Source: a virus | Taxonomy: Duplodnaviria; Caudoviricetes | DNA: 64,000 nucleotides | Reading direction: 5' to 3' (one strand) | IMG/VR virus record: IMGVR_UViG_3300046786_000293 | Location: 32,001 to 96,000 of that record | Shown here: positions 4,262 through 34,432 of the stretch, in pieces | Numbering within the stretch: position 1 is the stretch's first letter | Layout of the letters: each line of letters opens with the position of its first letter | The notes under the pieces: model-generated | What the model was told of the DNA's origin: nothing | Databases searched by the model: none | Seen by the model: the letters and a program-made list of their open reading frames with translations, nothing else | Position numbers and translations under genes: made by a program

Positions 4262-5449
4262 ATGTTTTCCTTAGATAATTTCTATTACATATTATACGCA
4301 AATTTGTTAAAACCTGCAAACTTATACTCTTTATATTTCTATCCTTTTGGTAGCACTAGCAGTGAGAACATTTGCCAAGACTTTAGCAGTATTAGACCAA
4401 ATTGGGATAATAACATATTTCAGCACTGTTTGTATTACGATCAAGAACCATTGATAAAACAACATTTTGAAAAACTTAACTATCCCCAAAGATACCATTT
4501 GTTTTTTACAAACAAGTATTGTAAATTATTAGCCAATAGCGAACATTCACTTTTTAAGAAACAAATCTGCAAAGAAAACGGTTACATAGATTGGTACTAC
4601 TTTTTCCATGGATTTGCTGCACTTGATTGGTATAGAGATTTTCAGTATTTTCCGTCAGTCGAATATCAAATTACAAAGATATTTATATCACTAAATCGCC
4701 TGACAACAAAAGACAGAAGTTATAGACTTTTACTAGCAAGTCATTTAATAAATGAAAACTTATTAGAAAAAGGACATGTTAGTTTGAGTCTCGATGATGT
4801 GGGACTAGGAACATGGCAAGATGAATTAACTTACAAATATAGTAAATTGCCAGAGCATACTGTTCCGTTTGTAAAAGAGCAAATTAGTAAATTACCAGGG
4901 TCTTTAACTTTAGATCAAAAGAATCCGCAAGGAGATTTGAGTTCAAAGTTTGATCAACACAGTATAAGAATTAGTCAAGAAGCACTTTGGCATGTTGTTA
5001 CTGAAACTGTGTTTTATTATGATAAATTACATTTAACTGAAAAAATATTCAAACCAATAGTACATCGACGACCTTTTATTCTTGTGGCGGCGCCAGGCAA
5101 TTTAGCATATCTAAAAAGTTATGGATTTAAAACTTTTGATAGGTGGATCAACGAAAGTTACGACAACGAAAAAGATCCTGCTAAACGAATAGAGATGATT
5201 GTCTACGAACTTAAAAAACTTTGCCAACTCTCGATGCCAGAAATTAATTTAATGTACGAAGAAATGAAAGAAATACTAGAATACAATTTCAATCATTTCT
5301 ATGGCCAGTTTAAAACTCTTATAGCAAATGAATTAGTAGATAACTTCGATGGCTGTATAAGACAATGGAATAACGGACGAGTTGACGGCAGAACCGTGAA
5401 TATTAGTAATATAGACTTAGATAAAATTAAAAAATTATTGGGTCAATAA
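4262..5449 (+). CDS. Glycosyltransferase-like phage protein
   Basis: C-terminal VVTETV...LTEKIFKPI...PFIL...LKSYGFKTF...ESYD pattern, typical of GT-B-like proteins in large phage glycan clusters. Confidence 0.55.
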   Translation: MFSLDNFYYILYANLLKPANLYSLYFYPFGSTSSENICQDFSSIRPNWDNNIFQHCLYYDQEPLIKQHFEKLNYPQRYHLFFTNKYCKLLANSEHSLFKKQICKENGYIDWYYFFHGFAALDWYRDFQYFPSVEYQITKIFISLNRLTTKDRSYRLLLASHLINENLLEKGHVSLSLDDVGLGTWQDELTYKYSKLPEHTVPFVKEQISKLPGSLTLDQKNPQGDLSSKFDQHSIRISQEALWHVVTETVFYYDKLHLTEKIFKPIVHRRPFILVAAPGNLAYLKSYGFKTFDRWINESYDNEKDPAKRIEMIVYELKKLCQLSMPEINLMYEEMKEILEYNFNHFYGQFKTLIANELVDNFDGCIRQWNNGRVDGRTVNISNIDLDKIKKLLGQ

Positions 5450-5452
5450 ATA
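5447..5452 (+). promoter_or_regulatory. T4-like late promoter core (TAAATA) upstream of aceA
   Basis: AATAAATAC overlaps the upstream stop, 42 nt before the aceA ATG; the same hexamer recurs before many genes in the window. Confidence 0.65.
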
Positions 5453-5494
5453 CATTATCAATGAATTTTAAGATTTAACTTTAAGGAAACTGAA

Positions 5495-6703
5495 ATGAAA
5501 AAACGCAACTATACTGTCGACGACGTTCGTCGGCTCCAAGGTAGTGTTCAGATCGAACATACATTAGCAAAGCGTGGCGCCGCAAAGCTTCGCACATTGC
5601 TAGCTACAGAACCTTATATAAACACCTTAGGTGCCTATAACGGTCAGATGGCGGTACAACATGCTAAAGCCGGATTAAAAGCAATTTACCTAAGCGGATG
5701 GCAAGTAGCTGGCGCAAATAACACAGCTAATCAAACATACCCCGATCAGTCATTATATCCAGTTGACTCAGTACCACGTGTGGTGAAAGGCATTAACAAT
5801 GCTTTCCGTCGTGCTGACCAAATCGAAACATTAGAAGGCAGTGTTACTACAGATTATTTTCTTCCTATTGTTGCTGATGCAGAAGCAGGATTCGGCGGTG
5901 CATTAAACGCATACGAATTAATGGCTGCAATGATTGAAGCAGGTGCTGCTGGTGTTCACTTTGAAGATCAACTAGCCAGTGAAAAGAAATGTGGTCATTT
6001 AGGTGGTAAGGTTCTCGTACCAACAAGTCAGATGATTCGTACACTTAACGCCGCACGTTTAGCCGCAGATGTTGCTGGTGTAGACACAGTTATCATGGCA
6101 CGTACAGACGCAGAAAGTGCCACATTAATCACTAGCGATCATGACCCACTAGATAAGGATTTTATTATTAATGAGCGTACTGAAGAAGGCTTTTATAAAT
6201 TTAAAAATGGTATCGATGCTTGTATTAGCAGAGGTCTTGCTTATGCCCCTTACGCTGATCTCTTATGGTTCGAAACTAGTACGCCTGATATCGCACAGGC
6301 TAAGAAGTTTGCTGATGCCATCCACGCTAAGTATCCTGACCAAATGCTTGCTTATAACTGTAGTCCTAGTTTTAATTGGCGCAAGTTTTTAAGCGAAGAT
6401 GAATGCGAAACATTTCAGCGTGAACTGGGTGAATTAGGTTACAAGTTCCAATTCATTACTCTTGCTGGTTTCCACTCTGTGAACCTTGCTACCTTTGAAT
6501 TAGCCGAAGCCTATAAGGATCGTGGTATGGCTGGCTATAGTGAAATGCAACAACGTGAGTTTGCTGCACAGGAGCGCGGATTTACTACCGTTAAACACCA
6601 ACGTGAAGTTGGCGTTAGCTACTTTGATGCAATTAGCACAGCAGTAGGTGCTACTTCTACTGTTGCTAATAAAACATCAACAGAAGCGGATCAATTTCAT
6701 TAA
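5495..6703 (+). CDS. aceA: Isocitrate lyase
   Basis: [37 protein letters not shown] catalytic loop, [21 protein letters not shown]. Confidence 0.97.
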
Positions 6704-31909: not shown

Positions 31910-32416
31910 TTAAAAAGTTAAAGTGCTAAAATTATATTTAATATTAGCATTGGCACCTGTATTAGTTGCGACATACCCTATTTGTGTAAAGGTTGCACTA
32001 ATATTAGATGCTTGAGTAAAAGTTAAAGTTACACCTATATTAGCTGTTTCTGTATAGGTATCATTAAATGATACAGTTGATGTGTTTTGTGCAATTAGAA
32101 TAGTTCCTTGTCTGTAATCACTTGCTCTTTGAATAGCATAGTTCATTGTAATACAAGGATTTAATGTTGAAAAAACTAAACCAGAAATATTTCCTGTAGT
32201 ATTGTCAGTTAATACAGCGGAGTTTGAGTATGGAAGATCATTTTCGGTCAAAACTCTAGTATTACCAACTTCGGGCGCACCTTCATCTAAGGTACCATTA
32301 CCGATAAACAATTCTTGAGTATCAACACTCCAGCCAAACTCTGCGCTAGATAATTGAGGTAGGTCTTCTGCTAGTCCCCTACGATTTTTAATTTGACTAA
32401 TTTGAACTATGGCCAT
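31910..32416 (-). CDS. Virion fibre-associated protein with Mtd/hyaluronidase-like N-terminus
   Basis: QIKNRRG...LPQLSSAEFGWSVDTQELFIGNG. Confidence 0.6.
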   Translation of the reverse strand: MAIVQISQIKNRRGLAEDLPQLSSAEFGWSVDTQELFIGNGTLDEGAPEVGNTRVLTENDLPYSNSAVLTDNTTGNISGLVFSTLNPCITMNYAIQRASDYRQGTILIAQNTSTVSFNDTYTETANIGVTLTFTQASNISATFTQIGYVATNTGANANIKYNFSTLTF

Positions 32417-33121: not shown

Positions 33122-33442
33122 TTATACTCTAAAACTTTCTCCGCAACCACAACGGTCACGTTCATTGGGATTCCGAAATTCAAATCCCTCATTTAATCCG
33201 TTTCTTACATAGTCTATTTCTAACCCTGCCAGATAAGGGCAACTTTTTGGATCTACAAATACTTTACAACCATTACAATCAATACATTGATCTTCGGGGC
33301 CGGGATTGTCTACGTATTCTAGCACATAAGCTAAACCACTGCAACCAGTTGTTTTTACCCCCACTCGAAGTCCAACACCAGAACCGCGTTTAGCAAGTTG
33401 CTGTTGAATCTTTTTAGACGCTGTGTTTGTTACGGTAATCAT
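33122..33442 (-). CDS. iscA: Fe-S cluster assembly A-type carrier IscA
   Basis: TTGCSGLAY, DYVRNGLNEGFEF.NPN...CGCGESF. Confidence 0.95.
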   Translation of the reverse strand: MITVTNTASKKIQQQLAKRGSGVGLRVGVKTTGCSGLAYVLEYVDNPGPEDQCIDCNGCKVFVDPKSCPYLAGLEIDYVRNGLNEGFEFRNPNERDRCGCGESFRV

Positions 33443-33809
33443 TAACTGCGGCCTTGATAGCATCTTCGGCAAGAATAGAGCAATGTATCTTCACAGGCGG
33501 AAGGGCTAGTTCTTCTGCGATTTCTGAGTTTTTAATTGAGCTAGCTTGGTCAAGAGTCTTTCCTTTGACCCATTCAGTAACGAGGCTACTGGACGCGATT
33601 GCCGATCCGCAGCCATACGTTTTAAATTTCGCATCTGTAATAATACCTGTAACATTGTCTACCTTTATTTGTAATTTCATCACATCGCCTATCTAACCAC
33701 ACGCTGGGGCGCCAACCATGCCAGTCCCAACGTGCGTGTCCTCCTTATCAAATGATCCCACATTTCTGGGATTTTCGTAATGATCAATTACTTTATTACT
33801 GTATGCCAT
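33414..33809 (-). CDS. iscU: Fe-S scaffold IscU interrupted by a 9-nt in-frame insertion containing TAG (recoded or pseudogene)
   Basis: Manual translation from ATG 33809: MAYSNKVIDHYENPRNVGSF...GMVGAPACG*IGDVMKLQIKV...FKTYGCGSAIASSS...LPPVKIHCSILAEDA. Removing 9 nt gives canonical APACGDVMKL and a 128-aa protein. Confidence 0.9.
33687..33698 (-). other. Candidate translational bypass (stop-hop) element GGU-UAG-AUA-GGC
   Basis: Gly take-off codon, amber stop, one spacer codon, Gly landing codon; both Gly codons are readable by tRNA-Gly(GCC). Confidence 0.55.
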
Positions 33810-34398
33810 AGTGTTCTCCCGTTATAGCAAAAATGATCGAATCGGGTTGATACGAATGCCATTTTAATCTATTGTCCTCTCCCTTTAAAAATTGTATATT
33901 CTTTTTACTTCCAAGTAAAGATGCAGGTATACCTAATTCAAAACCTTGTTTAATTGGAATTATGTGATCTATTTGAAGACTAAATTTATGTTTTCCGAAT
34001 CTTGGAATAAAATTTCCGGCGGCTTTTAATTCTTTTATAGACCTATATGTAAATTTCCTAACTTCACTTTTGTATAAAATGTATTCGTTATTGATTTCTT
34101 TCTTAGGTCTTAAATTGTTAAGTTTTCCATCTGCATTAGGGTTATTTTTAATCCACCGCTGGCGTTGCAACTCATTAGGTTTTCCTTTATTCCAGCCATG
34201 GCCTTTTTTCAATCCTTCAAGGTTTAATAATGATTTTTGTTCGTCAGTTAGTTTTAAGCCTTTATTCCATGCAACATTGCCCGGACGATTAATTGGATTT
34301 TTACACGAAGTTGAGCAATACATCAAAAATCTAGGCTTTGTTACAAATTGTTTTTTGCAGTGGAGGCAAATATTTTCTAGACCATATTTGTTTTTCAT
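33796..34398 (-). mobile_element. Free-standing HNH homing endonuclease gene
   Basis: N-terminal CxxC..CxxxC, two WNKG (NUMOD3-like) repeats, C-terminal QIDHIIP...KNIQFL...NRLK; overlaps the iscU start by 14 nt; TAAATA 5 nt upstream. Confidence 0.8.
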
Positions 34399-34432
34399 AC
34401 AAATATTTATCTAGGTGCGCTTGCTTGTGGGT

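Follow-up and report, generated by a model that had tools for sequence, protein, structure and literature searches.

How can a phage make intact IscU from a gene that carries a stop codon among its most conserved codons, and why does a free-standing nuclease gene adjoin it? Both questions are raised by the iscU gene in a 64,000-nucleotide (nt) stretch of DNA (positions 32,001 to 96,000 of the virus record IMGVR_UViG_3300046786_000293; hereafter the window), in which 9 nt beginning with TAG follow the codon for Gly38. Comparison with related alleles indicates that ribosomes most likely hop over this insert, from one glycine (Gly) codon to the next. We further propose that, in freshwater jumbo phages, an HNH-like nuclease gene makes up a single selfish cassette of ~0.7 kb together with the interrupted 5' part of iscU; the insert would protect its carrier from the nuclease and the hop would keep the protein unchanged. 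We assign this combined reading a probability of roughly 0.6.

The order on the minus strand is a TAAATA motif, a 200-amino-acid (aa) open reading frame (ORF), iscU, iscA and a PD-(D/E)XK exonuclease gene. The components are listed below with their window positions.

34404..34409, minus strand: promoter-like motif TAAATA, 5 nt 5' of the ATG of the HNH-like gene (candidate promoter)
33796..34398, minus strand: free-standing gene for a probable HNH-like nuclease of 200 aa, recognized from its ORF, invariant residues and weak profile and fold matches
33816..33820, minus strand: Shine-Dalgarno motif GGGAG of iscU, within the 3' end of the HNH ORF
33696..33809, minus strand: iscU segment 1, codons 1-38 (ATG at 33809-33807), ending in Ala-Pro-Ala-Cys37-Gly38
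33740..33746, minus strand: internal Shine-Dalgarno-like motif AAGGAGG, 3 nt 5' of the hairpin; its AGGAG is conserved among insert alleles
33698..33736, minus strand: predicted hairpin of 11 bp (5' arm 33736-33726, 3' arm 33708-33698), identified by covariation; minimum free energy (MFE) -24.4 kcal/mol
33696..33698, minus strand: proposed take-off codon GGT (Gly38)
33687..33695, minus strand: 9-nt insert with homologous inserts in relatives, comprising TAG (33695-33693), spacer ATA (33692-33690) and the proposed landing codon GGC (33689-33687)
33414..33686, minus strand: iscU segment 2, Asp39 to the stop codon, holding Cys63 and His105-Cys106
33122..33433, minus strand: iscA (Fe-S_biosyn, Pfam accession PF01521, E 1e-18), whose start overlaps the end of iscU; operon context, outside the cassette

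Short inserts in phage iscU

The initial annotation placed a 9-nt insert ~100 nt into a conserved region of iscU and described an HNH ORF that overlaps the iscU ATG and contains its Shine-Dalgarno motif. All of this is found in the sequence. The insert lies 114 nt past the ATG (GCG TGT GGT TAG ATA GGC GAT GTG ATG), and the HNH stop codon (33798-33796) and the iscU ATG delimit a 14-nt overlap of the two ORFs. Read through the TAG, the gene matches NifU_N (Pfam accession PF01592, E 1.3e-52), and its ligand motifs CGD, YGCG and HCS (Cys37, Asp39, Cys63, His105 and Cys106) are intact once the hop is applied. The take-off GGT and landing GGC can both be read by tRNA-Gly(GCC), and TAG directly follows the take-off codon, the codon arrangement expected of a bypass.

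An assembly artefact was rejected as the source of the insert, which contigs from three other studies carry unchanged. The contigs that match the insert region are X3 (33651-33946), X9 (33630-33791) and X4 (the whole stretch). An RNA-library contig, X15 (33566-33716), also contains the insert, but it says little about removal at the RNA level because it extends only 21 nt to one side and may derive from DNA carry-over.

Of the 80 viral contigs whose iscU is most similar, three carry an insert (GGT-TAG-TTA-GGT), and an HNH homologue lies upstream in the same three only. A pattern scan that allowed any 1-30 extra bases after the Gly38 codon identified 56 further loci. Removal of duplicates yielded 66 unique insert-bearing alleles, on metagenomic phage contigs. 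The insert pattern was also sought in bacterial and archaeal genomes, one for each of 185,579 species, and gave no match. Inserts in the 66 unique alleles are 6 nt (n=2), 7 nt (n=38), 8 nt (n=11), 9 nt (n=14) or 10 nt (n=1) long and sit at an identical position. The take-off GGN is directly followed by TGA, TAG or TAA in 62/66, and then, after 0-4 nt, by a second GGN. A GGN stands just before Asp39-Val40 in all alleles but one, and Asp39-Val40 is itself invariant (66/66). The spacer codon varies (ATA, TTA, AAA, CCT, CTG or CTT).

These insert lengths span all three frames, so neither stop readthrough nor a +1 shift decodes all of them; with the spacer variable as well, we rejected both as general mechanisms. 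A Gly-to-Gly hop yields the canonical APACG-DV in every insert allele. The hop-read IscU is intact, with 124-133 aa and its ligands, in all alleles not cut by contig ends, with the exception of L098. Sister lineages in the HNH tree differ in insert length (8 versus 6, 7 versus 8, 9 versus 8 and 9 versus 7 nt) across frames, implying that evolution treats the frame as irrelevant. The earlier proposal that the insert is tolerated through recoding is supported by these 6-10-nt inserts in all frames, by the intact ORFs and by a covarying hairpin.

This hairpin lies upstream of the take-off codon. In a predicted helix of 10-12 bp, codons ~10 residues upstream pair with those of Ala36 and Cys37 and with the G that opens the take-off codon. 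Its 10 core pairs are complete in 66/66 unique insert alleles, whereas in 70 insert-less alleles 4-9 of the 10 pairs form (mean 5.8) and the complete helix in none. The core pairs are unbroken across 29 distinct sequences. One pair occurs in all four Watson-Crick combinations (CG 14, AU 11, UA 3, GC 1) and another as UA 12, CG 8, UG 5, GC 3 and GU 1. Across the alignment, 91.7% of helix cells are paired, versus 32-51% when the partner is slid by 1-3 columns. Compensatory changes in the 5' arm switch between His and Gln, tracking synonymous Ala codons on the 3' arm. Mean MFE is -25 kcal/mol in insert alleles versus -11 in insert-less alleles.

An AGGAG just 5' of the helix is present in 63/66 unique insert alleles versus 1/70 insert-less alleles. 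Hairpin and AGGAG are both missing from all 6-7 HNH-positive insert-less alleles and are kept in insert-only alleles. They follow the insert across HNH states and thus belong to the insert, not to the nuclease, a distribution that is what recoding signals would look like. The initial annotation treated the 9-nt insert as the unit. The insert is present, but this overlooked its surroundings: judged by conservation, the predicted functional unit is ~75 nt and consists of AGGAG, hairpin, take-off codon, stop and landing codon.

Several alleles depart from the common pattern. L164, which is HNH-positive and lacks both insert and AGGAG, can form 9/10 hairpin pairs and could be a remnant of precise insert loss. 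L098 has a second, stop-containing 6-nt insertion (CCG-TAA-CTA-GTT) ~180 nt past the landing codon, just ahead of the conserved Val-Lys-Ile-His-Cys. This insertion lacks a matched pair of take-off and landing codons and could be damage or another recoding site. Stop-less 7-nt inserts occur in L083, L096, L102, L106, L136 and L216 (GGT-TGT-T-GGA) and in L126 (GGT-TGT-T-GAC), with hairpin and AGGAG intact. Their A-site codon may be slowly decoded, or they may be decaying alleles. L138-L142, L182 and L184 (e.g. L142:2090-3490) carry an in-frame iscU insertion of ~1 kb directly after the Cys63 codon, which is intein-like and has a weak match to a Hint module (E 7.9e-5). L182 and L184 carry both this insertion and an 8-nt hop insert, which marks iscU as a hotspot for selfish elements.

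The nuclease gene and its association with the insert

The 200-aa protein contains the motifs first noted from the window alone, a zinc finger, WNKG repeats and IDHIIP...N...N, and all are invariant in 20 homologues (49-68% identity, 195-205 aa). They comprise an N-terminal Cys4 zinc ribbon (C11, C14, C28 and C32; CxxC...CxxxC), two WNKG (NUMOD3-like) motifs (residues 44-47 and 69-72) and a C-terminal QIDHIIP...N167...N176. In the last of these, D144, H145, N167 and N176 are conserved, as in HNH nucleases, where the catalytic His is preceded by Asp and followed by two Asn or His residues. The AlphaFold model has a mean predicted local distance difference test score (pLDDT) of 73, rising to 86-93 in the C-terminal domain. 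Among solved structures (VIA) it comes closest to two HNH nickases, 4h9d (Z 4.5) and 5h0o (Z 3.6), both weak matches, and its Foldseek matches are weak and mostly HNH domains. Among viral structures the model best matches uncharacterised proteins of T4-like phages, with annotated HNH endonucleases next. PHROG returned weak matches to one unnamed family and to 'HNH endonuclease', and a profile search of the PDB with the nuclease found no match. We regard the protein as a probable HNH-type nuclease.

The nuclease family comprises 429 clusters in metagenomes, nearly all unannotated. We retrieved 80 loci in an HNH-seeded search, and 80/80 adjoin iscU. A tblastn search of 50,697 cultured-phage records gave a single weak match, a hypothetical protein of Aeromonas phage AS-zj (one genome, two accessions); the nuclease is thus not a detectable homologue of T4 MobA. 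HNH fragments lie upstream of iscU in L085, L088, L122 and L135. In L135, an ORF at 1953-2702 is chimeric, with an N-terminal half from the HNH family and a C-terminal half matching DUF559 (Vsr-like nuclease fold, E 2.2e-5).

A late promoter had been proposed in front of the nuclease gene. The TAAATA is present at 34409-34404, and in this genome 20% of ORFs of ≥100 aa have the motif within the 60 nt before them, versus 2.1% of random 60-mers, a ~10-fold enrichment. Its role as a promoter is presumptive, and its spacing is unusual: genome-wide, the motif mostly lies 10-30 nt before the ATG, versus 5 nt at the HNH gene. At this distance the HNH mRNA may have almost no leader and be translated poorly. 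HNH-less relatives align a TAAATA ~30 nt upstream of the iscU ATG.

Co-occurrence across relatives, which the initial annotation had suggested checking, follows the predicted direction. Among unique alleles with known upstream sequence, and with six alleles that carry HNH fragments omitted, 48 have HNH and insert, 6 HNH only, 6 insert only and 63 neither (raw odds ratio 84, Fisher p 1e-20). Since related sequences share labels, we added a test on independent pairs, to which we return below. The two patterns named in advance as contrary, nuclease with an uninterrupted iscU and insert without nuclease, both exist, as minorities only: 6-7 unique alleles show the first and 8 the second, and 6 retain the insert beside an HNH fragment only. 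The fragments and the insert-only alleles fit the usual decay cycle of homing endonucleases.

Several observations implicate mobility. First, within the window's own clade, defined by flanking genes, we found neither element in L022, L044 and L074, the same 9-nt insert and module and no HNH gene in L118 and L091, and both elements in L109 and the window. In L022, L044, L074 and L118, 39 nt separate the end of the upstream gene from the iscU ATG, and the window and L109 have a 0.6-kb ORF there. The gene is hence present or absent between the same neighbours, as for homing endonucleases, and its insertion point is clean. Second, codons 17-38 of the window are 98% identical to those of L118 (flanks 69% and 76%) and 88-89% identical to those of the group of L002, L004 and L027 (flanks 69% and 73-78%). 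The window's flanks are closest (85% and 83-86%) to the insert-less L013, L001 and L005. Third, in the independent strain X4, 31/32 differences over 1 kb fall within the 214 nt directly 3' of the insert, and the 743 nt of module and HNH gene (33658-34400) contain one difference. These mosaic tracts end beside the insert, as co-conversion would predict and as the initial annotation had proposed looking for; constraint at the RNA level may contribute. Finally, a tree built from the 3' part of iscU intersperses carriers with non-carriers, and its well-supported branches force at least 8-12 changes.

The comparison thus shows a nuclease gene that sits precisely between the promoter-like motif and iscU and travels with the ~75-nt iscU module. 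From this we propose the following sequence of events. During translation, a ribosome would pause with peptidyl-tRNA-Gly on GGU and a slowly decoded UAG in the A site. The tRNA would then unpair and, once the mRNA had slipped 9 nt onwards (in relatives 6-10 nt), re-pair with GGC, so that translation would resume at GAU and give normal IscU (APACG-DVMK). The likely forward driver is refolding of the hairpin behind the ribosome, at the mRNA exit, perhaps aided by pairing of AGGAG with 16S rRNA; this would draw the mRNA onwards by roughly the required distance. The nuclease would nick or cut insert-less iscU at or near the conserved Cys-Gly-Asp codons and spread via recombinational repair. The insert would break the DNA target and leave the protein unchanged, making the carrier immune. 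We infer both the decoding steps and the immunity of carriers by analogy with T4 gene 60.

Weighing the proposed cassette against other readings

A number of observations weigh against this reading. Take-off and landing codons are identical in just 29/66 alleles, and ~43/66 are compatible by standard wobble; ~23 alleles, such as those with GGT to GGA, would need different Gly isoacceptors under the same rules. In four alleles (TGT-T-GGA and TGT-T-GAC types), the take-off codon is not followed by a stop. While a take-off codon occupies the P site, the hairpin's 3' arm sits within the ribosome, so the helix could act only during or after take-off, and its role is a model. The independent-pairs test (n=8) gave 3-4 concordant and 0 discordant pairs (p ~0.125-0.25), which is underpowered and not significant. 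Some of the mosaic signal could instead reflect constraint on the nucleotides of the hairpin. HNH membership under curated thresholds is a further point: the Pfam HNH profile matches the 200-aa protein with E 0.021 and 15.4 bits, below the cut-off of 21.4, and matches 12/20 homologues, also below the cut-off (best E 0.0014). The iscU of about a tenth of nuclease-positive alleles is uninterrupted, and coexistence with the nuclease is therefore possible by other means than the insert. Finally, the phage encodes an intergenic tRNA with a CUA anticodon (genome positions 183606-183679, plus strand; L217:1007-1077; 36.1 bits against the Rfam tRNA model). It is credible as a tRNA, and some readthrough of this phage's in-frame TAG is therefore possible.

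All HNH-positive insert-less alleles deviate at the site (GLTGSPACGD, CGDLMK, PSCGDVLQLS) from an otherwise invariant GMVGAPACGDVMK. This deviation would fit divergence of the target site as a second route to coexistence; equally, these nucleases could aim elsewhere.

The bypass might be real and yet serve a purpose other than immunity, with the module throttling or regulating IscU synthesis and the HNH link reflecting proximity, as hitch-hiking over 115 nt. The persistence of the module in insert-only alleles and beside HNH fragments, together with the HNH-positive alleles that lack it, would suit such a role, and the authors of the T4 study likewise doubt that immunity is the only function of bypassing. 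Against this, no HNH-less lineage of naive type seems to have gained the module alone, and the counts for the complete hairpin and AGGAG in insert-less alleles given above point the same way. The raw odds ratio of 84 speaks against mere proximity. Moreover, homing endonucleases aim at the most conserved codons, whereas a regulatory device would have no reason to sit exactly there. We regard a purely regulatory module as unlikely.

In amber suppression, the phage's own tRNA-CUA would read the in-frame TAG and produce an IscU with three extra residues (Gly-X-Ile-Gly), with no hop. The 9-nt insert is in frame, as this requires. Relatives' inserts of 7, 8 and 10 nt, with TGA or TAA, are beyond any suppressor, and the variation of the spacer codon is as expected of untranslated bases. 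In the complete genomes G001 and G002, which have TAG-type 9-nt inserts, tRNA scans show no CUA anticodon. A DNA search for tRNA-CUA in five related complete genomes found none, leaving this phage alone among those checked, and this absence argues against suppression as a shared mechanism. The window phage's tRNA-CUA is a lone gene, distant from the main tRNA cluster (111-126 kb), which lies on the other strand. Cys37 and Asp39, described in the IscU literature as Fe-S cluster ligands, would be split by a three-residue addition between them. The genome shows no excess of in-frame TAG, and genome-wide TAG recoding was rejected: in-frame joins number 4 for TAG versus 36 for TAA and 5 for TGA, and TAG is a rare stop that ends 19/299 long ORFs. 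Suppression is accordingly quite improbable as the way in which the insert is decoded.

Alternatively, iscU could be a split gene. Ribosomes would terminate at the stop and restart at GTG40 or ATG41, with the hairpin bringing AGGAG near as a split ribosome-binding site, and the two pieces would assemble. Such a gene would be as independent of frame as the hop is. ATG or GTG stands at codon 40 or 41 in 59/66 alleles, the AGGAG and hairpin resemble the split ribosome-binding sites of T4, and T4 topoisomerase functions as split subunits. Seven alleles, however, have no in-frame start at codons 39-42, which argues against termination and reinitiation as a general mechanism. The landing GGN and Asp39-Val40 are invariant although they would be untranslated, and the protein would lose Asp39 and leave Cys37 on a 38-aa peptide. 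We consider a split gene very unlikely.

That iscU is dead, the insert being a scar of damage from nuclease attack, is hardly credible despite the in-frame stop within the catalytic loop and the second stop-containing insertion of L098: both halves of the gene are open and conserved over 66 diverged alleles with many synonymous changes, the strict insert architecture and covarying hairpin argue otherwise, and frequent extra frameshifts or stops, looked for in the 66 alleles, were not found. We rejected a pseudogene because the ORFs of these alleles are intact.

Relation to known bypass systems

The closest precedent for the proposed cassette is the mobile cassette of T4 MobA and gene 60, which combines an HNH homing endonuclease with a 50-nt bypass (Bonocora et al., 2011, as cited in PMC5009743; Manning and Atkins, bioRxiv 10.1101/2022.08.31.505936). 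In both systems, a free-standing HNH or HNH-like gene adjoins a gene that is interrupted at a conserved region. Both have a Gly take-off codon followed by a stop, a Gly landing codon just before the resume codon, a take-off codon within a helix and a Shine-Dalgarno-like element in the module. In both, the bypass is present in most nuclease-bearing genomes and in some that lost the nuclease, the nuclease decays, and several insertions have occurred into diverged backgrounds.

The logic is thus the same, yet each defining feature of the T4 element that we compared turned out different. The iscU nuclease (195-205 aa) is shorter than MobA (269-279 aa) and shows no detectable sequence relation to it. 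The host gene is iscU rather than a topoisomerase gene and is not split into two ORFs with added tails, and the gap is 6-10 nt rather than 50 nt. The conserved, covarying hairpin of the iscU module precedes the take-off codon on its 5' side, whereas gene 60 conserves the take-off stem-loop 3' of its GGA and not the 5' stem-loop. The Shine-Dalgarno-like motif lies upstream of the hairpin in iscU and 6 nt before the landing site in gene 60. The absence of the insert from ~a tenth of nuclease-positive alleles likewise distinguishes iscU from T4. An independent origin of an endonuclease-plus-bypass system, already suggested in the initial annotation, is supported by the comparison: the nuclease, which has no detectable similarity to any Mob protein of cultured phages, the host gene and the gap size are all different.

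The iscU inserts are also similar to synthetic stop-hops in Escherichia coli, which are short, place matched or near-matched codons around a stop and yield a single amino acid from 9 nt (Weiss et al., 1987, reviewed in PMC5009743). Synthetic stop-hops are engineered and inefficient, whereas the iscU family is natural and has what appear to be dedicated stimulatory elements. The same 2016 review (PMC5009743) states that no natural in-frame stop-hop was known and that short natural counterparts had long been expected. Another parallel is with the mitochondrial byps of Magnusiomyces capitatus, where short inserts in conserved genes, in many variants, are made harmless by hopping (PMC5009743). Unlike the iscU cassette, byps are mitochondrial and have no adjoining nuclease gene. 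They are reportedly 27-55 nt long.

The +1 site of release factor 2 (RF2; prfB, CUU UGA C) shares with iscU a stop in the A site and an upstream Shine-Dalgarno-like element, and the 7-nt class reads GGN-TGA-C. Unlike in RF2, a +1 shift fails for the 6-, 8- and 9-nt classes and would add variable residues (Asp, Asn, Glu or Arg, then Gly), and the Shine-Dalgarno-like motif of iscU is ~41 nt away in linear sequence. In full-text literature searches we came across neither a bypass in phage iscU or NifU nor a comparable homing cassette with a short natural stop-hop.

Programmed bypassing long rested on one example from bacterial viruses, T4 gene 60 and its homologues. We think it slightly better than an even bet that the iscU inserts are the first natural family of short programmed hops, that is, stop-hops of 6-10 nt with an upstream hairpin and Shine-Dalgarno-like motif, independent of gene 60 and forming the immunity half of a homing cassette. 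If so, a homing endonuclease and a bypass element would have come to travel together for a second time, independently of the first. This would favour the idea that bypass elements originate as a means of breaking a nuclease target in DNA where the encoded protein is not free to vary, and would make insertion in DNA with skipping in translation a recurrent answer to endonuclease attack on unchangeable codons. The locus offers dozens of natural minimal-hop variants, with five gap lengths, three stops and both matched and unmatched Gly codons. The hop signals are short enough for dissection with simple reporters and include a clean covarying hairpin. For annotation, such iscU genes risk being called pseudogenes or split ORFs.

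The window belongs to a 338.5-kb phage record with a G+C content of 39% and 41 predicted tRNA and transfer-messenger RNA (tmRNA) genes. Runs containing the stretch come from freshwater and estuary metagenomes of at least 8 studies. At genome positions 5387-6021, ARAGORN called a permuted tmRNA-like gene with a tag peptide, which may be a false call. In G002, the 524,565-bp record that holds L105, two tRNA clusters (115-126 kb and 417-427 kb) repeat one gene order on opposite strands, which points to an inverted duplication or a joined assembly and not to a single genome.

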